Positions 10,895 to 59,466 of a DNA stretch of 64,000 nucleotides are shown piece after piece. This DNA comes from Oligoflexales bacterium (GTDB taxonomy: Bacteria > Bdellovibrionota_B > Oligoflexia > Oligoflexales > JAPPIL01): the NCBI GenBank assembly GCA_965226195.1, contig OZ245333.1, positions 2,087,127 to 2,151,126 on the forward strand, in the 5' to 3' direction. Within the stretch, counting starts at the first letter, position 1. Each line of letters opens with the position of its first letter. The notes beneath the pieces are model-generated. The model worked only from the letters and a program-made list of their open reading frames with translations. It made no database searches and was not told the DNA's origin. Position numbers and translations under genes: made by a program.

Positions 10895-11031
10895 CGGCTC
10901 GTTGCCGCTTTCTAGCTTCGCACGGTTCTTTGCCGCTTTCCTGCTTCGCACGGCTCGTTGCCGCTTTCCTGCTTCGCACGGTTCTTTGCCGCTTTCCTGC
11001 TTCGCACGGCTCTTTGCCGCTTTCTAGCTCC
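10895..11031. repeat. Tandem array, about 5 x 28 bp, of the CTTTGCCGCTTTC(C/T)(T/A)GCT(T/C)C repeat family
   Basis: Direct reading shows the unit ctttgccgctttcctgcttcgcacgg(c/t)t repeated head-to-tail. The array fills the gap between the GCS2 stop and the GDH start. Confidence 0.9.
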
Positions 11032-13232: not shown

Positions 13233-13306
13233 GCGGGCATAGCTCAGCTGGCTAGAGCGTCGCGTTGCCATCGCGAAGGTCGAGGGTTCAAATCCCTTTG
13301 CCCGCT
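13233..13306 (+). tRNA. tRNA-Gly (anticodon GCC)
   Basis: A hand-folded cloverleaf gives acceptor GCGGGCA/TGCCCGC, anticodon stem TCGCG/CGCGA, loop TTGCCAT, T-arm GAGGG-TTCAAAT-CCCTT and discriminator U. No CCA is encoded. Confidence 0.9.
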
Positions 13307-13307
13307 T

Positions 13308-13522
13308 TTTGTTTTTATGCGGGGAGCGTTCCCCTGGCTTTGTTGCATAAGTTCCGTTGATTATAACATGCTGTTACCATAGCACTTTTATGTGGGGAGC
13401 GTTCCCCTCCCCGCTTTGCGCGGCTCTTTGCCAAAGGCGTGCCCGAAGGCACGCCTAGCTCCACACCCCTGCGTGTTCGCAGACTTCTCGTTTGGGTCAG
13501 GTGCAATCATCCTGCTGCACCA
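13308..13522. repeat. Copy A of a ~215-bp near-identical duplicated non-coding element (partner at 24288-24499)
   Basis: Only a handful of mismatches and small indels separate it from 24288-24499. It contains GGGGAGCGTTCCCC motifs and the hairpin GGCGTGCC-CGAA-GGCACGCC (13436-13455), embedded in a split copy of the short-repeat core. Confidence 0.85.
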
Positions 13523-14153
13523 TTCACACATGTGTGAATGCTCTTTGTCGCTTCCTAGCTCCAGCTAACGCATTCGCGTGAAATGGTTCGCTGTGATGCT
13601 TCCTCCCGCCCCTGTGTAAACTTTTGCGGACAATGCAAACTTGTGTGTAACACGAGCAACTTCTCCATAACATCAATATGATCATTATGAGATTGTCAAT
13701 GCTCGGCACTATGCCTATACCCCAAAGAAAAACCCCGTATTAAAACTCGCGGCTTTAGAGGCAAGTTCAGATGATGGGCAGCACAAATATGCCAACACCT
13801 ATATCCATCTTTGCGGGCGAGGGTTGTTGTGACCCAAGCAGTGTGCCAGAAGGCACGCTGCTAATCCTTATTGCCAAAGGGCACAAGCAAGTGGAAGCTA
13901 GCAAGCAGCAAAAGGATTGCGTAGCACGCCCGGGAGGCCAAATGTTAGGCGCGCAAGGCAGACCTTGGCTAGCACTACGCCTGAGTGTACGAAGCGAGCT
14001 AGAGCGAGAAAGCGGCAAAGAGTTCGCGAAGCGAGCGTTACAAAAAAGCGGCGTAAGCTAGCATTCATCCATTCAGCTGCGTCCAGCAGCTGAAAAAAAA
14101 CAAAACAAGCTAATGATTAGTTTTTTTCTCGCAGGTTACGTATACTGGCGGGC

Positions 14154-16987: not shown

Positions 16988-17467
16988 CTATTCGCAAGCC
17001 TTTTCAGCCGTCACCCACGTGGTGACCTTTTCCTTGGTCAAGCCACCGAGCTGGTCTTTACCGGGATGCTCCTTGTCAGCGAGATCGCCAGTGAGATACG
17101 TCCACAGCTTGTCCGCATCGAGTAAATTTTTCTCCTTGACTTTAGCTAGCATGCCTTCTTTGTTGCTAGCGGCGTTGGTCTCACCTGCCTTCAGCGCAAA
17201 CCCACCCTCGTCAGTCGCACTCGAATGACAGCCAGAGGCATCACAACTGTCTGTCTTGATATGCGGCTGGATGTTGCTGGCAAACGCTGTCGATGCCGCA
17301 GGGCAACCGTCCGTTGTTTCTGTTGGTTCATTCTCGCCATTGCACTGCCACAACATCAATGCCGCGACAATCGCTACGCTAACCCTTTGCCGCTTTTTAG
17401 CTCCGCTAACTCTTTGCTGCTTTCTAGCTTCGCTAACTCTTTGCCGCTTTCTAGCTCCACGCATCAT
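16988..17467 (-). CDS. Putative lipoprotein with a CX4CH (heme-c-like) motif; paralog of 17756-18196
   Basis: Lipobox-like LMLWQC and the motif SCDASGCH, with a shared architecture with the neighbouring gene. The only available N-terminus consists of three 27-nt repeat units (ARKRQRVSE/ARKQQRVSG/AKKRQRVSV). Confidence 0.55.
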   Translation of the reverse strand: MMRGARKRQRVSEARKQQRVSGAKKRQRVSVAIVAALMLWQCNGENEPTETTDGCPAASTAFASNIQPHIKTDSCDASGCHSSATDEGGFALKAGETNAASNKEGMLAKVKEKNLLDADKLWTYLTGDLADKEHPGKDQLGGLTKEKVTTWVTAEKACE

Positions 17468-17496: not shown

Positions 17497-17754
17497 CTCT
17501 TCCTAGCTTCGCTAGACTCTTTGCCGCTTCCTAGCTCCGCTAGACTCTTTGCCGCTTTTTAGCTCCGCTAGACTCTTTGCCGCTTTTTAGCTCCGCTAGA
17601 CTCTTTGCCGCTTTTTAGCTCCGCTAGACTCTTTGCCGCTTTTTAGCTCCGCTAGACTCTTTGCCGCTTTTTAGCTCCGCTAGACTCTTTGCCGCTTTTT
17701 AGCTCCGCTAGACTCTTTGCCGCTTTTTAGCTCCGCTAGACTCTTTGCCGCTTT
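17497..17754. repeat. Pure tandem array, about 9 x 28 bp (unit AGCTCCGCTAGACTCTTTGCCGCTTTTT)
   Basis: Direct reading shows nearly identical units without spacers. They fill essentially the whole intergenic gap between the two CX4CH lipoprotein paralogs. Confidence 0.95.
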
Positions 17755-17755
17755 A

Positions 17756-18196
17756 CTAGCGCCCACTGCTACATTTTTGCTCAGCTGCTAACCATGCCGT
17801 GATGCCCTCCTCGGTGATGTGTCCTGCGGCAACTTGGTTGCCCCCACCATGGGTATCGTCAGTGATCTTGTCAAGCAGCACACCATCTCCCATCAGCCAC
17901 CTGTTGCGGTGAGAAATCATATTAGCCCGATTGCCGGTGGCGGTATCTTCGTTTTCTTTCTTTAGCAGCTCAAGTCCACCACCGGGAGCGTCGGCATCAC
18001 TGCCATGACAGCCTCCGCCGCTACACGATGCATCTATGGCAGTCTGGATATTTAGCTCAAAAGTATAGAGTGCTAGTTGGGGGCACTCTTTTCCTTCGAT
18101 TGGTGGTAGTTCGGGTGTGGGGGACTGTGGGTCGTTGTTCTCGTCGCTGCACTGCCAGATAGAGCACAGCAGCACGATGCACAAGATGCGCGCCAT
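17756..18196 (-). CDS. Putative lipoprotein with a CX4CH (heme-c-like) motif; paralog of 16988-17467
   Basis: Start chosen at MARILCIVLLCSIWQC (lipobox-like). Motif SCSGGGCHG and a conserved C-terminal ...TAWLAAEQKC. Confidence 0.55.
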   Translation of the reverse strand: MARILCIVLLCSIWQCSDENNDPQSPTPELPPIEGKECPQLALYTFELNIQTAIDASCSGGGCHGSDADAPGGGLELLKKENEDTATGNRANMISHRNRWLMGDGVLLDKITDDTHGGGNQVAAGHITEEGITAWLAAEQKCSSGR

Positions 18197-22482: not shown

Positions 22483-22962
22483 ATGGATACGGCTGGTTTT
22501 GCTAAAGTAAAGGGCTATCTCAACGAACTGGGATTGGCGATTATCAAGGAGGTTGCCGACGATGACCTGTTTATCGTGCAGGACGAGGACAACGGCATCA
22601 ACAATTTAGTTATCGATGTCGAAGACCCGATTGTTGTTCTCGAACAGTTTATCATGGACGTGCCTAAGCAGGGGCAGGAGTATTTTTATCGTCGCCTGCT
22701 GCAGATGAACCGCGCACTCGTGCACGGTGCATTTGTGCTCGATGGGGAGCTAGAAAGCGGCAAAAAGTTAGCGGCACAGCCGCTAGAAAGCGGCAAAAAT
22801 CTGCGACATGAGCGTAGCGAAGTGGTGGCACAACGTGTTTATTTTCGGGATACCTTGCAGCTGCAAAATCTTGATCTCAACGAACTTGAAGCTTCGATCA
22901 AGGCGTTGTCGCTAGGTTTGGCTGAAGTCAGTAGCGAGCTGATTGAATTTTCCAAAAACTAA
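22483..22962 (+). CDS. YjfI-like (DUF2170-like) protein paired with PspA, carrying two in-frame repeat units
   Basis: The ATG at 22483 is preceded by AGAGGAG, and the gene lies immediately upstream of a PspA-family gene, as in yjfI-yjfJ. The internal LESGKKLAAQP-LESGKNLRHE segment is encoded by repeat units at 22746-22800. The family call is tentative. Confidence 0.5.
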   Translation: MDTAGFAKVKGYLNELGLAIIKEVADDDLFIVQDEDNGINNLVIDVEDPIVVLEQFIMDVPKQGQEYFYRRLLQMNRALVHGAFVLDGELESGKKLAAQPLESGKNLRHERSEVVAQRVYFRDTLQLQNLDLNELEASIKALSLGLAEVSSELIEFSKN

Positions 22963-24287: not shown

Positions 24288-24499
24288 TGTTTTTATTGTG
24301 GGGAACGCTGGCTTTGTTGCATAAGTTCCGTTGATTATAACATGCTGTTATCATAGCATTTTTATGTGGGGAGCGTTCCCCTCCCCGCTTTGCACGGCTC
24401 TTTGCCAAAGGCGTGCCCGAAGGCACGCCTAGCTCCACCCCCCCCTGCGTGTTCGCAGACTTCTCGTTTGGGTCAGGTGCAATCATCCTGCTGCACCAT
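24288..24499. repeat. Copy B of the ~215-bp duplicated non-coding element (partner at 13308-13522)
   Basis: Near-identical to copy A, and includes the same GGCGTGCC-CGAA-GGCACGCC hairpin (24410-24429). Confidence 0.85.
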
Positions 24500-24883
24500 G
24501 TCTCATGCTAAAGCATTGGCGTGAAATGGTTTGCAGGTCTGCTTGCACCTGACCATTGTCAATTTCTGTGGACACTACGGGCCTGTGCGTGGTGCAGGCA
24601 TTACCTTTGCAACACCTATAAGATTCTTACTGCTAAAGGGTTATAGGATATAAACATGCCTGCCCTGAGTTATGCAACAAAGCCGGACATGCTGGGTGCT
24701 CTCGCTACTTGCTTTCACTACTTGATGCTGAAGGAGACTAAAAAGCAATCAGAGGGGTACCGGCTATTTTGACCCATGTCTGCAACAACCATCTTTATAG
24801 GAGCTAACAAAAAGACAGCAAGCATCGACCCGTCATCTGCGCCAGCAGCTGAAAAAAACTAAGCTGCGCTAGCAAGTAACACC

Positions 24884-25864
24884 TTATGTCACATGAACAA
24901 GGATACGCTTGCTGGTTTTACGAGCTAGCATCTGCTCGGCTACTGAAGGTAAGTCGGTGAGTGTAATTTCTTTGTCGCACAACATGTCAAATTGACGTGG
25001 CTTAAGCTCGGCCGCGAGGCGTTGCCAAAGACGGCGGCGTTGTGACCGCGGACAGTTGTTGGAGCTGATACCGAGCAAATTCACCCCGCGCAGAATGTGA
25101 GGGAAGATAGTGCTGTTGAGGTCGGCAGAAGACGCAAGACCGACACAGGCAACGTTACCATGTAGTGCGGTTGCCTTGAGCAAGGCTGTCAGGTATTTGC
25201 CGCCAAGATTATCGATTGCCCCGCCCCAACGCACTGAGGCAAGCGGTGCTGAGCTATGCTCAAGCAACTGTGCGGTTGTGCAGATTTTCTCCGCCCCTAA
25301 CTGTTGTAGCCACGTGTGGCTGCCCTGCTTGTCGCTCACGGCGATAACTTTGTAACCACGCTGACTGAAAATAGCGACGGCGATACTGCCAACTCCGCCT
25401 GAAGCTCCTGTGATAACAATATCACCTAGCTCTGGCATTTGTGCATTGCGTTCCATCTGTTCGAGACATAGTGCTGCAGTAAATCCCGCCGTGCCGAGTG
25501 TAATTGCTTCCTTTAGTGTCAGACCTTGCGGCAAGGGAATGAGATGCTGGGCTGCGACCGCGGCTATCTCGCAGTAACCACCATCGTGTTCTTCCCCCAG
25601 CCCGCAACCTGTAGCCAGCACCTTGTCACCGCAAATAAACGGAGCAGTGCCAGCATCGAGCACTTCACCAGCAAGGTCAACACCAGCAATCAGCGGAAAC
25701 TTGCGAATAATACGTCCACGACCTGTGATTGCCAATGCGTCCTTGTAGTTGAGTGCCGAGTAATGCACTCGCACCAGCACTTGCCCTGCACGCGACACGG
25801 GTGCCGCGGCATCAACTATCTCTGCCTTGTAGGTGTCGGTGTTAGAAATTTGTAAAGCTTTCAA
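24884..25864 (-). CDS. YhdH/AcuI-type NADPH-dependent oxidoreductase (MDR superfamily)
   Basis: YhdH-like motifs VHYSALNYKDALAITG, FPLIAGVDLAGEV and ITGASGGVGS. The likely start is the TTG at 25864, which overlaps the upstream gene's TGA (TTGA). Confidence 0.8.
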   Translation of the reverse strand: MKALQISNTDTYKAEIVDAAAPVSRAGQVLVRVHYSALNYKDALAITGRGRIIRKFPLIAGVDLAGEVLDAGTAPFICGDKVLATGCGLGEEHDGGYCEIAAVAAQHLIPLPQGLTLKEAITLGTAGFTAALCLEQMERNAQMPELGDIVITGASGGVGSIAVAIFSQRGYKVIAVSDKQGSHTWLQQLGAEKICTTAQLLEHSSAPLASVRWGGAIDNLGGKYLTALLKATALHGNVACVGLASSADLNSTIFPHILRGVNLLGISSNNCPRSQRRRLWQRLAAELKPRQFDMLCDKEITLTDLPSVAEQMLARKTSKRILVHVT

Positions 25865-26556
25865 TGCTGCTGCTTTCCTTGCGGTGTTAGTGCGACGCTC
25901 AAGCCCTTCATGGCATAGTAGAGGCAACCGCCGTTAAAAATGTGCCAGAGAAAGTGCGTGCCAGTCGGAAAATGCGGGCAGATGTGTGCGTCAAGAATGC
26001 GGCAAAATAGCGAGGCGGAAAAAAAAGCAAGTGCCACACCGTAGATTGTTGCTTCTGCGCAGCGACGACGTAAGCGATCAAGATAAAACAAGGCGATAAC
26101 CAGCAACGGGCTGAAGTAAAATTCCGAGTTGTTCAAAAATTCAATCTTGAAAACACGCAAAAATGCGGTGCAAATTACAAACAACATGGTAATGGCAATC
26201 GTAGTGCTTGTCTTGAGACGCAGCACGCAAGTCAGCCAAGTGATAACGTAGACAATCATGAACAAGCTTATCGGGCCAACATCAAGAAACAACGCCCAGA
26301 AGCGAGCAAAACTGTGGAACAGTGAACTGCCAATTGCAATTGCTAAAATTAAATACTGGAGAACTGTAAACAACAACGCGCAGTTTAGCGGGCGTAACTT
26401 TCTCACCGCAAAGAAAGCGATAAAAAAGGCAAGGTTGGAAAATAAATTCCACGGCTCTGCCAGCAGTCCGTCCGCGGTGCGCTCGCAGTATAAGTCAACC
26501 AGCCCGCTCAGCGGCGGAATGTCATGTAGCCAAGTCTTATCCATAGCTGCCTGCAC
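25861..26556 (-). CDS. Ceramidase-like (alkaline ceramidase/CREST superfamily) membrane protein
   Basis: 7-TM-like ORF with YCE....EPWNLFSNLAF, GSSLFH and HFLWHIF motifs. Confidence 0.6.
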   Translation of the reverse strand: MQAAMDKTWLHDIPPLSGLVDLYCERTADGLLAEPWNLFSNLAFFIAFFAVRKLRPLNCALLFTVLQYLILAIAIGSSLFHSFARFWALFLDVGPISLFMIVYVITWLTCVLRLKTSTTIAITMLFVICTAFLRVFKIEFLNNSEFYFSPLLVIALFYLDRLRRRCAEATIYGVALAFFSASLFCRILDAHICPHFPTGTHFLWHIFNGGCLYYAMKGLSVALTPQGKQQH

Positions 26557-43148: not shown

Positions 43149-43877
43149 CTAGACACACCGCCGCAATAACTCTTCACACTGTTCAGTAGGCGGCTCAATC
43201 AACTCTGCCGCAAGCAAGCGCACAACCGCACGTGGCAATTCTTTGCGCAATGTGGCGCTTATTTTGTCTTGCTCGCTGTCTGGCACGATGTCAGCAAGAC
43301 CGCACAAGAACTGTGCATGCGTGCGTCCGGCGCGATAGTCAGGTTCACGCTGTGGGTGTGGCAGCAATGCCTCGATCTTGTCCACCTCTGCACGGTAGAG
43401 CAGCGAAGCCTGATAGAGGAGATAGTTGCGACTGCGAAAGATCGACGTGCCGCCTACCTTGCGTTCTCCCCAAGCAATATCGCTGATACCACGATGGCGC
43501 AAATCGGCCCACGCAGCACAATAGACAGCAAAACTTTCAATCAATGCGGTGTTGATACGCTCAAAGTAGTGCGCATTGTGAAAGTAACGCCCTACCCACA
43601 GCCCTATACTGACGATGATGCAGTACTGGTGCAAGACCACCGCTCCGCCGCCGCCCTTGCGCCGCAAGACAGAAACACCTTGTGCCGCACAGCGTTCCTG
43701 ATAGCACGCAGCCTCAGGGCTATCGCTGTTACCCAACACTACTATGTCGCGCTCAGGTGACCAGACTTGTGTGCAGATTTTTTGCCGACATTGGGCAATG
43801 ACACGGCGATCGATACCACTTGCTATGCTTGTAGGGCTGTTTGTCCGCTTTCTAGCTCCGACCAACGCCCGTATCAC
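43149..43877 (-). CDS. Lipoate-protein ligase/octanoyltransferase (BPL_LplA_LipB) family protein
   Basis: Motifs RRKGGGGAVVLH and GERKVGGTS are typical of the family. The N-terminal residues VGARKRTN are encoded by a repeat-family unit. Confidence 0.5.
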   Translation of the reverse strand: MIRALVGARKRTNSPTSIASGIDRRVIAQCRQKICTQVWSPERDIVVLGNSDSPEAACYQERCAAQGVSVLRRKGGGGAVVLHQYCIIVSIGLWVGRYFHNAHYFERINTALIESFAVYCAAWADLRHRGISDIAWGERKVGGTSIFRSRNYLLYQASLLYRAEVDKIEALLPHPQREPDYRAGRTHAQFLCGLADIVPDSEQDKISATLRKELPRAVVRLLAAELIEPPTEQCEELLRRCV

Positions 43878-44313: not shown

Positions 44314-44686
44314 TCGTCTCTTTCTCCCAACGAAAATCGACAAACTCGATCGTCACCATCTGCGCCCCATCGCCGGGACGCAAACCGCTACGTAAAATGC
44401 GAGTATAACCACCCTGTCGTTCCTTGAAACGTGGGGCTAAATCATTACACAGCTTGCTGACCGCCTCACGCTCGTGCAGCAGTGCTGCCGCCCGTCGCCG
44501 TGCTGCCAACGTGCCACGCTTGCCCCACGTGACGCACCGCTCGACCACCGGCCGCAACGCCTTCGCCCGTGGCAAAGTTGTCTCAATACTCTCGTGCATG
44601 ATCAAGGCAGTGCTCAAATTGCCCAGCATAGCCCGTCGATGCGCTGTGTCCCGTCCTAGTTTGCTATGTCCGTATAGATGTTTCAT
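44300..44686 (-). CDS. rplQ: 50S ribosomal protein L17 (bL17)
   Basis: MKHLYGHSKLGRDTAHRRAMLGNL... matches bL17 and lies downstream of rpoA. The start is set at the ATG at 44686; the longer ORF prefix is repeat-derived. Confidence 0.93.
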   Translation of the reverse strand: MKHLYGHSKLGRDTAHRRAMLGNLSTALIMHESIETTLPRAKALRPVVERCVTWGKRGTLAARRRAAALLHEREAVSKLCNDLAPRFKERQGGYTRILRSGLRPGDGAQMVTIEFVDFRWEKETNEDA

Positions 44687-44729
44687 GCTTCGCTCCGCTC
44701 GCTGGCTTGTTTGCCGCTTTCTTGCTTCA

Positions 44730-45740
44730 TCAGTGTTTCTGCTGATTATCCATATCTTTGCGGAACTTGTCCGCATCAAACCCGTCGATCGTCATGCCAA
44801 GTGATAAACCCATCTCACTCAAAATATCCTTGATCTCGTTCAGCGACTTGCGCCCGAAATTTTTTGTTTTGAGCATGTCTGTCTCAGAACGCGTAACCAA
44901 CTCGCCAATATACTTGATATCGGCATTTTCAAGACAGTTCGCCGCCCGCACACTTAACTCCAGCGAATCGACGGCCTTGAACAGGTTCTCGTTCAAAGCC
45001 GACTGCCGTTCGGAATCATCGTCGTAGCTCTCTTCCTCTTCCGCCTCATCGAAGTTGATAAAGCAAGTCAGCTGTTCCTTCAGAATCTTTGCGGCATAAG
45101 CAATGGCATCGTCAGGACGCACCGCACCGTTCGTCCACACCTCCAACGTCAGACGGTCGTAATCGGTCATCTGCCCGACCCGTGTATTGGAAACATCAAT
45201 CGCTACCCGTCGCACAGGCGCAAAAATTGAGTCAATGGCAATCATCCCCAATGGCAACTCTTCATCACGGTTGCGATCGGAAGAAAAATAACCCCGTCCA
45301 ATCTTGACCACCATCTCCATCTCAAAATTGCCGTCCTCACCTACTGTCGCAATCAACTGGTCGGGGTTGAGAACCTCGACATCGCCGCTGCTCTCGATGT
45401 CTCCAGCTCGCAACACGCTATTTGCACCGCCTTTGAGATGCACCGTCACTGGCTTATCACCGAGATAGCGCAGGTTGACCTGCTTGAGGTTGAGGATGAT
45501 GTCGGTCACGTCTTCCCGGACACCCTGCAAAGTCGAGAACTCATGATCGACCCCCGGAAGACGCACCGCCGTAATCGCCGCACCGTTGATGCCAGATATG
45601 AGAATACGACGCAGCGAGTTACCAATCGTCGTGCCGTACCCGCGCTCCAGCGGCTTAGCGATAAACTTGCCATACGTATCGTTGAGAATCTCGGCTTCGA
45701 TAGCCCGCGGCTTGATCAGTTCCAGCCAGTTGCGTTGCAT
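44730..45740 (-). CDS. rpoA: DNA-directed RNA polymerase subunit alpha
   Basis: 336-aa ORF with a typical RpoA N-terminal domain (GTTIGNSLRRILIS) and C-terminal domain (LELSVRAANCLE). Confidence 0.95.
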   Translation of the reverse strand: MQRNWLELIKPRAIEAEILNDTYGKFIAKPLERGYGTTIGNSLRRILISGINGAAITAVRLPGVDHEFSTLQGVREDVTDIILNLKQVNLRYLGDKPVTVHLKGGANSVLRAGDIESSGDVEVLNPDQLIATVGEDGNFEMEMVVKIGRGYFSSDRNRDEELPLGMIAIDSIFAPVRRVAIDVSNTRVGQMTDYDRLTLEVWTNGAVRPDDAIAYAAKILKEQLTCFINFDEAEEEESYDDDSERQSALNENLFKAVDSLELSVRAANCLENADIKYIGELVTRSETDMLKTKNFGRKSLNEIKDILSEMGLSLGMTIDGFDADKFRKDMDNQQKH

Positions 45741-50680: not shown

Positions 50681-51066
50681 AACTTCACTCCCCCTTCACG
50701 CACGCCCTCTGCTAGAGCTTTTAGGCGACCGTGATAATTGCAGCCATTGCGATCGAAAACTACCGTCTTCACTTCTTTTGCCAAACACGCAGCAGCTAGT
50801 TTCTGCCCCAGCACTTTGCAGTTTGCGACGTTCGCCCGTGAGGCTGCGCCACGCTTTTTGCCGCTTTCGCGCTCCAAATCATCTTTGCCGAACGAACTCA
50901 CCGCCACCAACGTATGCTGCTTCACATCGTCGATCACCTGTGCATAGATGTGCCGTGCTGAACGAAACACCGACAGACGTGGGCGCTCCGTCGTGCCGCT
51001 GATTTTCTTGCGAATACGCTTCTTACGCCGCAACAGCAGCATTAGCTTAAGTGTCTGCTTCTTCAT
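50677..51066 (-). CDS. rplR: 50S ribosomal protein L18 (uL18) with an apparent internal repeat-unit insertion
   Basis: RPRLSVFRSARHIYAQVID...FDRNGCNYHGRLKALAEGVREGG matches uL18. The internal LERESGKKRG is encoded by the repeat core at 50854-50875. Confidence 0.93.
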   Translation of the reverse strand: MKKQTLKLMLLLRRKKRIRKKISGTTERPRLSVFRSARHIYAQVIDDVKQHTLVAVSSFGKDDLERESGKKRGAASRANVANCKVLGQKLAAACLAKEVKTVVFDRNGCNYHGRLKALAEGVREGGVKF

Positions 51067-51077
51067 ATATCCCTTGC

Positions 51078-51620
51078 CTACTTCTTAGTCCCAGACTTGC
51101 CGACTTTAGTGGCAATAACCTCGTCTTTATAGCGCACACCCTTGCCGTGATACGGCTCTGGCTTGCGAAAACTTCTGATAGTTGCCGCCGTGCGTCCGAC
51201 ATGCTCTTTGTTCGCACCGCTGACGACGATGTTGTTCTGCTTGCCCACCTGCACCGTCACGCCTTCCAGCGGCGTAAATTCAATCGGATGGCTGTAGCCC
51301 AGACTCAAATTCAACACCTTGCCCTTCATTGTCGCACGATAGCCAACTCCAACCATCAACAGCTCTTTAGTGAAACCTTCGGTAACACCGACTACCATGT
51401 TGTTGATCAAGGTGCGCATCAAGCCGTGAAATTTTTTGTTCTCCTTCACCTTCTCATGCAAAGTAACGAGCACCTTATCGCCATCACGGGTTACCACCGT
51501 GCGGGGATGAATCTTCTGCTCCAACGCACCCTTTGGCCCCTTGACCTTCACAACATCGTCGCTGATCTTGAGATCAACAGCACTCGGCAATGTAATTGGC
51601 AACTCACCTATACGTGACAT
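51078..51620 (-). CDS. rplF: 50S ribosomal protein L6 (uL6)
   Basis: MSRIGELPITLPSAVDLKI...GYSHPIEF...KPEPYHGKGVRY matches uL6. Confidence 0.95.
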   Translation of the reverse strand: MSRIGELPITLPSAVDLKISDDVVKVKGPKGALEQKIHPRTVVTRDGDKVLVTLHEKVKENKKFHGLMRTLINNMVVGVTEGFTKELLMVGVGYRATMKGKVLNLSLGYSHPIEFTPLEGVTVQVGKQNNIVVSGANKEHVGRTAATIRSFRKPEPYHGKGVRYKDEVIATKVGKSGTKK

Positions 51621-51631
51621 CTCTGCTCCTT

Positions 51632-51713
51632 ACTCCGCTCGTCGCAGGACTCTTTGCCACTTGCTAGCTCCTCACTCCGCTCGTCGCAGGACTCTTTGCC
51701 ACTTGCTAGCTCC
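51632..51713. repeat. Two tandem 42-bp units of the repeat family in the rpsH-rplF spacer
   Basis: actccgctcgtcgcaggactctttgccacttgctagctcctc is repeated at 51632 and 51674. Confidence 0.9.
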
Positions 51714-51714
51714 A

Positions 51715-52110
51715 TCAATACACCGAACACAACAGCTCTCCACCCGTGCCACGTCGCCGTGCTTCACGATCGGTCATGACACCCTGAGAAGTTGAAAGCA
51801 CGACGATACCAAAACCGTTCTTGATCAAGGGAATGTCCTCGCTCCCCACATAACGCCGACAACCGGGACTACTAATGCGTTTAATCTCTCTAATTACACC
51901 GTTCAACGGGTCACGATACTTTAGCGTGATCTTCAACAAACCCTGCTTGCCATCACGAATACAGCGGTAGTTTTTGACAAAACCTTCTTGCCTGAGAATA
52001 TGTGCAATGGCAATCTTTATCCGCGACGCGGGCATACTTACCACCTCGTTACACGCCCGCTGCCCGTTACGAATACGAGTGAGAAAATCAGCAATAGGAT
52101 CAGTATTCAC
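51715..52110 (-). CDS. rpsH: 30S ribosomal protein S8 (uS8)
   Basis: DPIADFLTRIRNGQRA... matches uS8. Confidence 0.95.
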   Translation of the reverse strand: MNTDPIADFLTRIRNGQRACNEVVSMPASRIKIAIAHILRQEGFVKNYRCIRDGKQGLLKITLKYRDPLNGVIREIKRISSPGCRRYVGSEDIPLIKNGFGIVVLSTSQGVMTDREARRRGTGGELLCSVY

Positions 52111-52320: not shown

Positions 52321-52881
52321 TTAATTCTTTTTGAACGGAAATTTAAACCGATCTAGCAAAGCTTTTGCTGTTATATCGTTTTCAGCAGAAGTGACAATAG
52401 TTATCGACAGACCGCTGATTTTTTCGACTTTATCGTAATCTATTTCAGGAAAAATAATCTGCTCGACAATACCCAGCGAGTAATTTCCTCGCCCATCGAA
52501 CGACTTGGGTGGATAACCACGAAAGTCACGAATACGAGGCACGGCAATGTTAATCAGCCGATAGAGGAACTCATACATCCTGTCATGACGCAAGGTCACC
52601 ATGCAACCAATCGGCATGCCATCACGGATCTTGAAACCAGCAATACTTTTCTTCGCTCGCCGCACGGCTGCCTTCTGCCCGGTAATACGGGCTAATTCCT
52701 GCAACGAGCTGTCGAGTGCCTTGACGTTCTGCGCTGCCTCACCTTTGCCGATGTTGGCAACGATCTTCTGCAAACGCGGCACTTGCATGGCGTTATTCAA
52801 CCCCAACTCTTGCTGCAACTCGCGGCGAAACTGCGTATATGCTTGCTTGAGCGCGGGCACGTGTGCTGCTTGCTTTGCCAT
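52321..52881 (-). CDS. rplE: 50S ribosomal protein L5 (uL5)
   Basis: [20 protein letters not shown]...RDFRG...[11 protein letters not shown] matches uL5. Confidence 0.95.
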
Positions 52882-53250
52882 CTACACTACCTCCGGTGCC
52901 AGCGATGCAATTTTGATAAAGCCGCGGTTGCGAATTTCACGTGCCACAGGGCCGAAAATACGCGTCCCAATTGGCTCGTTGTCCTTGTTGACCAGCACGC
53001 AGGCATTCTCGTCGAACTTAATCGTCGTGCCATCCTTGCGCTGCACTTCTTTCTTGGTGCGCACGACCACTGCCCGCTGCACGCTGCCTTTCTTGGTCTT
53101 GCTGCCCGGCAGCACCTCACGCACCGAGACGATGATAATATCGCCGGGTGCGGCATAACGTCGGTTCGTGCCGCCCGGAATTTTGAAACATTTCAAACGC
53201 CGCGCGCCTGAATTGTCCCCGCTCTGCAGAATGCTTTCCATTTGAATCAT
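52882..53250 (-). CDS. rplN: 50S ribosomal protein L14 (uL14)
   Basis: [24 protein letters not shown]...GPVAREIR matches uL14. Its TAG is immediately followed by the rplE ATG. Confidence 0.95.
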
Positions 53251-53576
53251 CTTGTCGCCACCCTTATGATTTCCAGCAGATTAAAGCTTTTGCGCTTGCT
53301 GCGTGGCCGACAGGGACGCACCAGCACCTCATCACCAAGCTGCGACTTGTTATCCTCATCGTGAAAGAGAATCTTCGTCGTGCGCTTAATATATTTGCGA
53401 TAGATAGGATGCTTGACCAAACGCTCAATCTTCAACGTGCGGGTCTTCGACAACGCCGCACTGATCACTACGCCTTTCAGCGTCTTGATGCGCGCTTTGC
53501 CTGCTTCGCTCGGCTTTTTGCCGCTTTCTGCTTCGCAGGACTCTTTGCCGCTTGCTCGCTCCGCTTCACTCGTCAC
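53247..53576 (-). CDS. rpsQ: 30S ribosomal protein S17 (uS17) with a repeat-derived N-terminal extension of about 25 aa
   Basis: The core [44 protein letters not shown] matches uS17. The N-terminal [26 protein letters not shown] is encoded by repeat units. The only in-frame start I can find is the GTG at 53576, which overlaps the rpmC end. Confidence 0.9.
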
Positions 53577-53793
53577 GCTGCACCTCCTGTGTCGTTGTCA
53601 GTGTTTCCACCGTACCCGATGTCTTGCGTTCTTGCTGTTCGGTGCGAATGGTAAGCACGCGTGCCAGCACCCGCCGCAACTTGCGCTGCTGTCCGATATT
53701 TATTCCTTCTTTGTTGAGTGGTGCACGCAACTTGGCTATCGCAAGCTGTTCACGCACGTTCTCCTCTGTCTCTTTCATGTCGGCAGCACTCAT
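53566..53793 (-). CDS. rpmC: 50S ribosomal protein L29 (uL29)
   Basis: MSAADMKETEENVREQLAIAKLR...QRKLRRVLARVLT matches uL29. The start choice is tentative and the C-terminal tail is longer than usual. Confidence 0.85.
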   Translation of the reverse strand: MSAADMKETEENVREQLAIAKLRAPLNKEGINIGQQRKLRRVLARVLTIRTEQQERKTSGTVETLTTTQEVQRDE

Positions 53794-53818: not shown

Positions 53819-54259
53819 TTAGCTAGCTCCACGTGCCTGCTCCCATACATCTGTGTTCCGCATCAACAAACGTGTCTTGAAGGGCAGTTTCGAGCCTGCC
53901 AGCGTCAAAGCACGCGCGGCAATGTCGGCACTGACATCTGCCATCTCGTAGAGAATCAAGCCCGGCGCAACGGGCGAGACATAGTGATCGACCGCACCTT
54001 TGCCACTACCCATGCGTGTCTCTGCCGCTTTCTTGGTCACTGGCTTGTGAGGAAAAACTTTAATCCACACCTTACCACCACGCCGAATGTGACGCGTCAT
54101 AGCAATACGTGCTGCTTCAATCTGCCGTGCCGTGATGTAACCCGATTCGGTTGCCATCAGTCCGTAACTGCCAAACGCCAACTCCGTGCCACCCTTGCTG
54201 TTGCCTTTGATGCGCACCTTATGCGTCTTGCGAAATTTCATTTTTTTTGGTGCTAACAA
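53819..54259 (-). CDS. rplP: 50S ribosomal protein L16 (uL16)
   Basis: MLAPKKMKFRKTHKVRIKG...RMGSGKGAVD matches uL16. Confidence 0.95.
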   Translation of the reverse strand: MLAPKKMKFRKTHKVRIKGNSKGGTELAFGSYGLMATESGYITARQIEAARIAMTRHIRRGGKVWIKVFPHKPVTKKAAETRMGSGKGAVDHYVSPVAPGLILYEMADVSADIAARALTLAGSKLPFKTRLLMRNTDVWEQARGAS

Positions 54260-58882: not shown

Positions 58883-59466
58883 AGCTGCTCGTCGGGCTGG
58901 GTAATCCCACGCCGCACTACGCCTTTACCCGCCACAATGCAGGTTTTATCTGTCTCGACTTGCTGGCGACAGAGTATAGCCTGACGTGGACGGAGAAAAA
59001 AAAACTGCGGGCTTTGGTGGCGCAAGGTGAGGTATTTGGCACAAAGTGTCTTTTGCTGAAACCGCAGACATGGATGAACCATAGCGGTCAAGCGGTGGCC
59101 GCGGCGGTGAATTTTTTCCGCCTCATGCACGACGACGTGGTGGTCTTGTATGATGACCTCGACGTGCCCGCAGGACGAGTGAAGTGCAAGGACGCTGGCA
59201 GTAGCGGTGGACACAACGGCGTGCAGAGTGTCATTGATTGTCTGCACAGCCAAAATTTCCAGCGCATCAAGCTGGGGGTGGCACGTCCGCCAGAAGCGCA
59301 GCATTCGGGGGATGGGAGCGAGAAAGCGGCAAAAAGCAGACCCACGAGCGGAGAGGAGTGGGTGCTGGGAAAATTCAGTGCAGCTGAGCTGGAAGTTTTG
59401 CGCACAGAGATGTATGAACAGGTGCTGCTGCGGTTGCGGCAGATTTTCAGAGAAACGCAGGCTTAA
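58879..59466 (+). CDS. pth: Peptidyl-tRNA hydrolase with an apparent internal repeat-unit insertion
   Basis: KLLVGLGNPTPHYAFTRHNAGF and ...GGHNGVQS match Pth. The segment PPEAQHSGDGSEKAAKSRPTSGEE interrupts the usually short G.G.P....VL loop and contains the repeat core at 59315-59336. Confidence 0.9.
   Translation: MKLLVGLGNPTPHYAFTRHNAGFICLDLLATEYSLTWTEKKKLRALVAQGEVFGTKCLLLKPQTWMNHSGQAVAAAVNFFRLMHDDVVVLYDDLDVPAGRVKCKDAGSSGGHNGVQSVIDCLHSQNFQRIKLGVARPPEAQHSGDGSEKAAKSRPTSGEEWVLGKFSAAELEVLRTEMYEQVLLRLRQIFRETQA

Follow-up and report, generated by a model that had tools for sequence, protein, structure and literature searches.

Ribosomal proteins rank with the best-conserved genes known; they serve as phylogenetic markers and are assumed to be slow and clean in their evolution. 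In this study, we analysed a stretch of 64,000 nt from an Oligoflexales bacterium (assembly GCA_965226195.1, contig OZ245333.1, positions 2,087,127 to 2,151,126 of the forward strand; hereafter the window). Its S10-spc operon, on the minus strand, carries rpsQ, the gene of ribosomal protein uS17 (S17), between rpmC and rplN, and the 5' end of rpsQ contains units of a tiny repeat that recurs at many places in the window. This repeat is written into four ribosomal proteins of the clade, in different frames and with turnover among close relatives. The gene order L16-L29-S17-L14 is alike in the window and in all relatives, and the features discussed below are collected in Table 1.

The rpsQ locus and a probable extension of uS17

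An in-frame stop lies 8 codons 5' of the GTG at 53574-53576, and the next in-frame ATG, GTG or TTG is a GTG at codon 37, within the near-invariant IKTLKGVV block of the core. Because this next candidate falls inside the conserved core, the GTG at 53574-53576 is the sole canonical start of rpsQ. A preliminary description of this DNA had read the same frame, had found no ATG, GTG or TTG between the repeat units and the core, and had named the GTG at 53576, overlapping the last codons of rpmC, as the only start. The minus-strand open reading frame (ORF) 53247-53576 gives an identical translation, and the other two points were confirmed on the sequence; the overlap is 11 nt, the rpmC stop TGA being at 53566-53568.

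The S17 profile PF00366 was matched over its full length (E=5.2e-24, residues 35-102, profile positions 1-68 of 68), and uS17 chains in the PDB were matched by the window protein down to E=1e-21. Because residue 29 pairs with residue 4 of E. coli uS17, the protein has about 25 extra N-terminal residues. In the AlphaFold2 model, the predicted local distance difference test score (pLDDT) exceeds 90 for residues 33-105, a confident OB core with the five strands of that fold (residues 33-39, 45-55, 62-72, 83-89 and 97-105), and the N-terminus is unstructured, with a pLDDT below 50 for residues 8-26.

The extension is very probably translated from two 27-nt units, inserted in frame, of a dispersed repeat that is specific to the lineage. 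Tandem Repeats Finder (TRF) reported an array at 53501-53565 (period 27, 2.4 copies, 78% matches, score 79). The core of unit 1 (53541-53561) starts 4 nt past the rpmC stop codon, and since rpsQ starts 11 nt before that stop, a unit just past it falls inside S17. Unit 1 is absent from the orthologue P0002/L005 (80% identical, N-terminus MTSEAKLESSKKPRAAGEARIKTL), which has one unit, and the window is exactly 27 nt, or 9 aa, longer; unit 2 (core 53514-53534) is homologous to that single unit, AAGCTAGAAAGCAGCAAAAAG. About three units of 27-nt period had been counted in the preliminary description. The period stands but the count does not, as two units are real and the partial third one is probably ancestral N-terminal sequence rather than an inserted unit. 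Because this stretch aligns with the ancestral QRAAGEAR codons of relatives, the two units appear to have been inserted after codon 5.

Table 1. Genes, repeat units and arrays in the window, with positions in window coordinates
Feature	Position	Strand	Basis or remark
rpsQ (uS17) coding sequence, 109 aa, putative repeat-derived N-terminal extension included	53247..53576	-	ORF, Pfam and PDB matches
rpsQ start codon GTG	53574..53576	-	11 nt inside the rpmC 3' end
Shine-Dalgarno sequence AGGAGG of rpsQ	53583..53588	-	Within rpmC tail codons, 6 nt upstream of GTG
uS17 OB-fold core, residues 29-109	53250..53492	-	E. coli uS17 residues 4-82 align; AlphaFold
Repeat unit 1 in S17: core GAGCGAGCAAGCGGCAAAGAG + linker TCCTGC, encoding ERASGKESC	53535..53561	-	2 mismatches to 21-mer core
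Repeat unit 2 in S17: core GAAGCAGAAAGCGGCAAAAAG + linker CCGAGC, encoding EAESGKKPS	53508..53534	-	4 mismatches to 21-mer core
Partial 'third unit' EAGKAR, repeat-like composition	53490..53507	-	Aligns with CGAGCAGCAGGCGAGGCACGT (RAAGEAR) of repeat-free S17 in L086/L087
Unit in rplR (uL18), ..LERESGKK.., in frame within 11-aa loop insertion	50854..50874	-	Core match
In-frame unit in peptidyl-tRNA hydrolase (Pth), third frame SEKAAKS, TAG changed to GAG	59316..59336	+	Core match, Pfam
Two in-frame units (ELESGKK..PLESGKN) in CesT-like chaperone, domain split	22747..22800	+	Pfam match in two stretches
In-frame unit in LplA/B-like ligase	43838..43858		Core match
Three in-frame 27-nt units (ARKRQRVSE...), positively charged N-terminal region of ORF 16988-17467	17373..17457	-	Orthologue P0024 keeps the units
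Intergenic array, nine 28-nt units, stops in all frames	17504..17754	-	Tandem repeat scan
Intergenic array, ~4.6 units of 28 nt, between GCS2-family gene and large glutamate dehydrogenase gene	10895..11030	-	TRF
rpsH/rplF (S8/L6) spacer, 2 units of 42 nt	51625..51713	-	
rpoA/rplQ spacer filled by one unit	44707..44727	-	L003: 4 units of 37 nt, stops in all frames
Copies in 5' untranslated regions	22422 and 26643		26643 copy 87 nt upstream of minus-strand ORF 25861-26556
rpmC (uL29), longest ORF, 94 aa	53566..53850	-	Pfam PF00831, residues 16-71

A protein search with S17 returned 22 orthologues, and DNA was fetched for several of them. When contigs were scanned with the S17 alignment, only one close relative was obtained, L006 (an uncultured Oligoflexales metagenome-assembled genome, OY282434.1); the other 79 loci were distant and were used only as a control for L24. 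The window protein, with two units in the ELESGKE frame, is identical in L001 and L002, and its sequence recurs when other samples are assembled independently, three assemblies of this species having it. In L003, another species, the N-terminus MSETQSGARKRQTSIAEQSGASKRQGDSNASGARIKAL reads the repeat (GGAGCTAGAAAGCGGCAA...GGAGCTAGCAAGCGGCAAGGAG) in the RKRQ frame (ARKRQ). The S17 proteins of L086 and L087 begin with MADEAQQRAAGEARIKTL and MANETRVAGEARIKTL, respectively, and hold no repeat; their loci have it in the S8/L6 spacer and in L30. Those of L088, L089 and L006 have short N-termini (e.g. MSETQASIKTL), and no repeat was found across 15-20 kb at these loci. Thus, the extended orthologues carry the repeat and the repeat-free ones are short; none was found with the same extension and no repeat similarity.

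The start of rpsQ and its Shine-Dalgarno (SD) context align with the window in all seven relatives with DNA, whether repeat-bearing or not: ACAGGAGGTGCAnnGTG is conserved in L005, L086 and L087, and CAGGAGATGC...ATG in L003 and L088. In repeat-free relatives, this start lies 7-14 codons from the core. The residues just 5' of the core (AGEAR) are conserved at the amino-acid level. In each of the three lineages that have the repeat, no stop interrupts the S17 frame across it; the periods there are 27 or 39 nt, and two frames of the repeat are read. We infer that the extension is translated because the start and SD are homologous, AGEAR is conserved, the frame is open, there is no other canonical start and the coding periods are divisible by 3. 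Comparative evidence therefore supports the earlier proposal that repeat units are read as an N-terminal extension of uS17 from the GTG overlapping rpmC, the repeat being dispersed and slippage-prone.

In a rough neighbour-joining tree built on eight ribosomal proteins, the window falls with L005, L086 with L087 and, weakly, L003 with L088. Taken with the differences in frame and in N-terminal anchor, this tree suggests that S17 gained the repeat twice independently. A single gain followed by loss and reframing might also account for the pattern.

The repeat family in proteins and spacers

The sense core of the repeat is GAGCTAGAAAGCGGCAAAGAG, followed by a linker of 6-21 nt; the sequence is purine-rich and non-palindromic. 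In the window, the 13-mer core was matched 33 times at up to 2 mismatches (2.6 expected) and the 21-mer core 33 times at up to 5 mismatches (0.0 in 20 shuffles). There are about 13 separate loci, and the repeat is also present in L003, L086, L087 and L092. Nearly all of the ~13 loci run in the same direction as the local gene, whichever strand it is on, one or two being ambiguous (13541; a weak match at 7695). Copies are found mostly in spacers between cistrons, in 5' untranslated regions (UTRs) or among the first 30 or so codons. Of the three sense frames of the unit, two are open, GAG CTA GAA AGC GGC AAA GAG (ELESGKE) and GGA GCT AGA AAG CGG CAA AGA (GARKRQR); the TAG of the third has become GAG in the Pth copy. 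Since all three frames occur in proteins, the similarity is one of DNA and not of a peptide motif. The antisense frames, as read from the sequence, are hydrophobic or stop-containing (LFAAF followed by a stop, SLPLSS and LCRFLA).

Invasion of proteins by the repeat, universal ribosomal proteins included, is clade-wide. In S17, L18, L30 and L15, the repeat lies in frame within a conserved protein yet is missing from orthologues. The L18 insert, DDLERESGKKRGAA, sits around codon 65; the 11-aa insertion is present in the window and L003, and L18 of L087, L088 and E. coli is without it. L30 of L003 has a repeat-built C-terminal tail (ELELESGKESCDERSEDLESGEDK...), and that of L086 has a similar one; L30 of the window has no such tail. 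An internal GARKRQGAGEAS insertion derived from the repeat is present in L15 of L003. Outside the ribosome, the Pfam matches of Pth and the CesT-like chaperone are interrupted or stretched by the insert, and the units of the latter (around codon 95) are kept in P0025 and P0028. P0027, encoded on the contig of the window, has five ELESGKELAK units (a 27-nt array of 4.6 perfect copies), and P0026 has three ARKRQRVSE units of 27-nt period. The coding periods are divisible by 3: 27 nt in S17, ORF 16988-17467, P0027 and P0026, 33 nt in the CesT-like chaperone, 39 nt in S17 of L003 and 42 nt in the L30 tail of L003.

Two further observations concern these proteins. At the same L18 loop, rplR of L086 (8910-9326) has a different insertion of 20 aa, AASVSSQKASKKASDTKSLARQ, which could be a diverged repeat copy or reflect an independent insertion hotspot. 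ORF 16988-17467 begins with MMRGARKRQRVSEARKQQRVSGAKKRQRVS, then VAIVAALMLWQC; this N-terminus looks like a signal peptide with a charged n-region built of the three 27-nt units, and nine non-coding 28-nt units lie directly upstream.

Most intergenic periods (28, 28 and 37 nt) are not divisible by 3, and these arrays have stops in every frame; the exception is the 42-nt S8/L6 array, which is open. Between the S8 stop and the L6 start, L088 has only TGAGGAAGCTAGCATG, L087, L003 and L086 have one unit, the window has 2, L001 has 4 and L002 has 8. The S17 protein is identical in the window, L001 and L002, and in a comparison of 221 nt spanning the junction their DNA differs at one synonymous position. 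Because the S8/L6 copy number nevertheless differs among such near-identical strains, the intergenic arrays appear to expand and contract quickly. This variation, the 1 versus 2 units of S17 and the 33 core copies in the window bear out the earlier view of the repeat as slippage-prone and show that it is dispersed. Units start 2-4 nt after an upstream stop at S8 (TGA-TG-GAGCTAG), rpoA of L003 (TGA-GCG-GAGCTAG), the 11 kb array (TGA-GGTG-GAGCTAG) and rpmC (TGA-AGCG-GAGCGAG). In addition, the last, truncated unit provides the SD of L6 (AAGGAGCAGAGATG) and that of L17 (GGAGCGAAGCATG).

The S8/L6 array (51606-51716; 4862-5053 in L001; 2895-3269 in L002) is a mini-ORF, M(ELASGKESCDERSK)n, 35 aa long in the window, whose ATG overlaps the S8 stop (TGATG) and whose end lies just past the L6 start. 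Translation of this mini-ORF is possible, but it may be open simply because the unit frame has no stop; in public assemblies it is called as genes of 63 and 124 aa, which are spurious ORFs. In the rpoA/rplQ spacer (44680-44730), the single unit forms a 15-codon mini-ORF, MKQESGKQASERSEA, in which stop and start codons overlap at either end (TGATG ... ATGA), an arrangement that would permit translational coupling. The nine units of the 17504-17754 array are near-identical (98% matches), and each has UAGC-GGA-GCUA, reminiscent of GGA-motif sponge RNAs. The predicted centroid of this array is nearly unpaired, and GGA hairpins of the CsrB/RsmZ type are not favoured by folding. A block of about 250 nt is duplicated at 13312-13611 and 24308-24554 (segments of 136, 58 and 53 nt, 75-100% identical); one copy adjoins the tRNA at 13233-13306, and the block holds a variant of the core broken by a GC-rich hairpin (GGAGCTAGGCGTGCCTTCGGGCACGCCTTTGGCAAAGAGCCG).

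No evidence of a structured RNA or DNA element was obtained at the repeats. A covariance scan of the whole window with Rfam at gathering scores returned two tRNAs only and no match at the repeats. When four arrays were folded and compared with dinucleotide shuffles, none was more stable (z = +2.0, +0.8, -0.9 and +0.1); the first value, from a 146-nt stretch of a 28-nt array (17615-17760), means that it folds worse than its shuffles. Folding thus gives no support to a palindrome or hairpin, although no dedicated inverted-repeat scan was made and terminal inverted repeats were not searched directly. A structured element of the REP, MITE or Rickettsia palindromic element (RPE) type was therefore dropped. 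The unit, 27-28 nt long (variants 33-42) and commonly tandem, also differs from the single copies of ~100-400 bp of RPE and MITE, target-site duplications not having been searched systematically. A CRISPR array was ruled out because the units are directly adjacent, without unique spacers.

An exact 20-mer scan of JGI metagenome contigs gave two singletons, which are chance matches because the contigs have unrelated GC contents (59% and 37%) and hold no further units, and the same scan of IMG/VR viral contigs gave no match; these scans thus do not point to a phage or a mobile element as the source. When the repeat peptides of all three frames were combined into one composite query and searched against a protein database, only proteins from this clade were returned, single-unit insertions being too short for significance in a database of that size. 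The L6 translation-initiation region in its ancestral form (L088 spacer GGAAGCTAGCATG...) and an L16 segment (54018-54038) were also considered as origins of the repeat; the similarity is suggestive but too short for a claim. This coding segment of rplP, GACCAAGAAAGCGGCAGAGAC (TKKAAE), matches the core at 17 of 21 positions and is also found in L006 (9584-9604), a relative without the repeat family. The likeness could be due to chance or could mark a progenitor sequence.

Probable translation, origin and role of the extension

A course of events compatible with these data can be proposed. Units would be copied to new sites, the candidate processes being ectopic recombination, gene conversion and some mobilisation system, and would then expand or contract locally by replication slippage or unequal recombination; this local mechanism is reasonably supported. 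A unit landing after the rpmC stop would land in rpsQ, and the survivors would be those with a stop-free frame and a period divisible by three. The sense frames would give hydrophilic peptides (ELESGKE, GARKRQR and SEKAAKS) and hence a disordered tail on a terminus tolerant of extension. In coding DNA, the antisense frames alone would filter the orientation of the repeat. The orientation bias of intergenic copies needs another cause, either an effect at the RNA level or transcription-linked spread.

Several points weigh against a translated insertion of dispersed units. Translation of the S17 tail is a comparative inference in an uncultured organism. The S17 phylogeny is shallow (5-13% protein divergence) and conflicts with the L18 insertion common to the window and L003. 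The window, L001 and L002 have exactly two units each, so that S17 itself shows slippage only when the window is compared with L005. The units were not linked to any transposase or reverse transcriptase, target-site duplications and terminal inverted repeats not having been searched for. Finally, the strict sense orientation of the intergenic copies and their position at junctions could reflect a function at the RNA level and not mere tolerance.

This last point leads to a tenable, though doubtful, alternative, in which the repeat is mainly a cis-element of the RNA: an unstructured, purine-rich, SD-like GGAG segment at junctions that opens initiation regions or acts as a standby or coupling site, with the S17 peptide as a by-product. 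Such a role is compatible with translation of the tail and differs only in the target of selection. The co-orientation of nearly all window loci, intergenic ones included, the concentration of copies in spacers, 5' UTRs and early codons, the poor folding of the arrays (up to z = +2.0), the SD supplied to L6 and L17 by a truncated unit, and the overlap of both mini-ORFs with the neighbouring cistrons (TGATG...ATGA) all agree with it. However, copies also lie deep in genes and far from starts (L18, Pth, the CesT-like chaperone and L15), the four-fold variation between strains at one junction looks neutral and not tuned, and the close relative L088 lacks it at these junctions. Selection against the antisense strand, through its hydrophobic or stop-containing frames or through a CUCC that could pair with the SD, can also explain the orientation bias. 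It is very unlikely that the units in S17 are an untranslated spacer, as at S8/L6 and rpoA/L17, and that translation begins at a non-canonical ATC (Ile30) or CTG (Leu33). Other copies of the family do occupy intercistronic spacers, and L003 has a GGAG 5 nt before the ATC (GGAGCGCGCATC); such a GGAG is missing from the window, and ATC and CTG starts are rare in bacteria. Moreover, a GTG or ATG start with a strong SD is conserved in seven genomes and lies close to the core where the repeat is absent, AGEAR is conserved as protein upstream of the core, and the S17 frame remains open in three lineages, whereas stops close every frame of the spacer arrays with 28- and 37-nt periods.

Once translation is accepted, the tail could be a selected functional extension for which the repeat was the raw material, making a contact with 16S rRNA or aiding assembly. 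In Mycobacterium smegmatis, a 13-residue N-terminal extension of uS17 contacts helices h7 and h9 of 16S rRNA, and the extension is longer in M. tuberculosis (PMC5876184); in PDB chain 5v93_q, a uS17 of 135 aa, the core starts at residue 52. As in mycobacteria, the extra residues of the window protein precede an unchanged OB-fold core, and the mycobacterial case shows that the uS17 N-terminus tolerates extensions on the assembled 30S subunit. The retention of the same sequence in three assemblies of the window species and the basic RKRQ version of L003 would also fit a function. However, the M. smegmatis extension is reported to be ordered enough to make its contact, whereas the tail described here is repeat-built, variable among close relatives and predicted to be disordered. 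To our knowledge, the mycobacterial extension has not been linked to a dispersed repeat. Among close relatives, the sequence of the tail, its length (6 to 27 extra residues), its reading frame and its charge (by counts on the sequences, ~-1 for the window and ~+2 for L003) all vary, several relatives have no extension at all, and the repeat part of L005 differs from that of the window mostly by non-synonymous changes. As the charge is not conserved, a specific peptide function is argued against, and a selected tail seems quite unlikely. The model and these comparisons suggest that the tail is probably a disordered, tolerated passenger without specific function, although it might make a structural contact, especially in the basic L003 version. 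The probability that the stretch is only low complexity by chance or an assembly artefact is negligible: the S17 array is short (2.4 copies, 78% identity), but the 21-nt core is found 33 times in the window and never in shuffles, and the identical S17 sequence was assembled independently from different samples.

Our literature searches turned up neither the repeat nor any repeat-derived extension of uS17. The closest known systems are RPEs in behaviour, the small dispersed repeats (SDR) of Nostocaceae in size and slippage-prone tandem repeats in dynamics. RPEs were reportedly described by Ogata et al. in 2000 as 'selfish DNA in protein-coding genes'. Like them, the Oligoflexales repeat is dispersed and lineage-specific, with many in-frame insertions into unrelated, conserved housekeeping genes that are presumably translated into fold-compatible peptides. 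RPEs, however, are palindromic, hairpin-forming single insertions of ~100-150 bp, whereas the present unit of 27-28 nt folds no better than shuffles and is tandem with variable copy number; unlike RPEs, it is also sense-oriented, used in three frames and found in the universal ribosomal proteins S17, L18, L30 and L15. SDR, as Elhai et al. (2008, Genome Res 18:1484) are said to have described them, are 21-27 nt long, largely non-coding and partly palindromic. By this description, the two families have in common a size below 30 nt, a dispersed and lineage-restricted occurrence, insertion into otherwise conserved sequence and the lack of a known mobilising enzyme, but they belong to different phyla and are unrelated in sequence. 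We know of no report of SDR as tandem in-frame arrays in ribosomal proteins. Like variable number tandem repeats (VNTRs) that arise by slippage, the unit is tandem and varies in number between strains (2, 4 and 8 at S8/L6; 1 versus 2 in S17), with coding periods divisible by three. Classical VNTRs are locus-specific and typically found in surface or contingency genes, whereas this family recurs at many loci, including housekeeping and ribosomal genes. REP/BIME, ERIC, Correia/NEMIS and MITE-like repeats are likewise short, abundant, lineage-specific, often placed in operon spacers and co-transcribed (PMC3116915, PMC10969869), but all of these are either palindromes or bounded by terminal inverted repeats, and they are found in either orientation or as inverted pairs, in contrast to a unit of single orientation that folds no better than shuffles. 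The repeat is thus set apart by a combination: a non-palindromic 27/28-nt unit, sense orientation, tandem expansion, use in three frames and presence in universal ribosomal proteins. RPEs as selfish DNA in protein-coding genes are summarised in PMC10969869, and the Nostocaceae repeats are cited in PMC3116915 and PMC5861425.

It is also conceivable, though unlikely, that the unit belongs to an undescribed kind of element: ultra-small, non-palindromic, transcription-oriented and targeting cistron junctions just past stop codons, where it would serve, or be tolerated, as an unstructured, SD-like coupling module, with a new, e.g. RNA-mediated or translation-coupled, way of dispersal. In this one Oligoflexales clade, it would then be reshaping operon spacers as well as termini and loops of universal ribosomal proteins (S17, L18, L30 and L15). 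If it were true that the element acts in translational coupling or moves by a new mechanism, it would form a new class among bacterial small repeats. The clade offers a natural experiment on how much unstructured sequence the ribosome surface tolerates, on how new termini and loops arise from non-coding repeats, and on how overlapping genes constrain where a repeat can land. On the practical side, repeat insertions inflate or confuse gene calls and can disturb alignments of marker proteins.

Other features of the operon

The longest ORF of rpmC has an ATG start that lies 32 nt within rplP (53819-53850). The start in relatives is a GTG equivalent to 53832 (VELAKL...), which gives an L29 of 88 aa with a 14-nt overlap, and this GTG is probably the true start in the window. 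The match to PF00831 (E=5e-5) scores 23.7 bits, just under the cut-off of 24.5 bits; since it falls below the gathering threshold, the uL29 of this clade is divergent. An unusually long C-terminal tail of rpmC running into the repeat region had been pointed out before. The tail exists, extending ~23 aa beyond the Pfam domain, but it has no connection with the repeat: all relatives have it, with or without the repeat, and it shows no repeat similarity. Its codons carry the SD and the start codon of rpsQ.

The gene rplX (uL24) is absent from its usual slot in the operon, where the L14 stop abuts the L5 start (52881-52882), as also in L001-L006 and L086-L089. In a tblastn search with E. coli L24 as the query, L24 was found in 78 of the 79 non-clade S17 loci and in none of the clade loci or the window. 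The gene may have moved elsewhere or been lost in this clade. S10 is called with 131 aa in L003 (5076-5471) and L086 (1687-2082) and with 103-105 aa elsewhere; the longer versions are probably over-long start calls, because their extra N-terminal residues are neither conserved nor repeat-derived.

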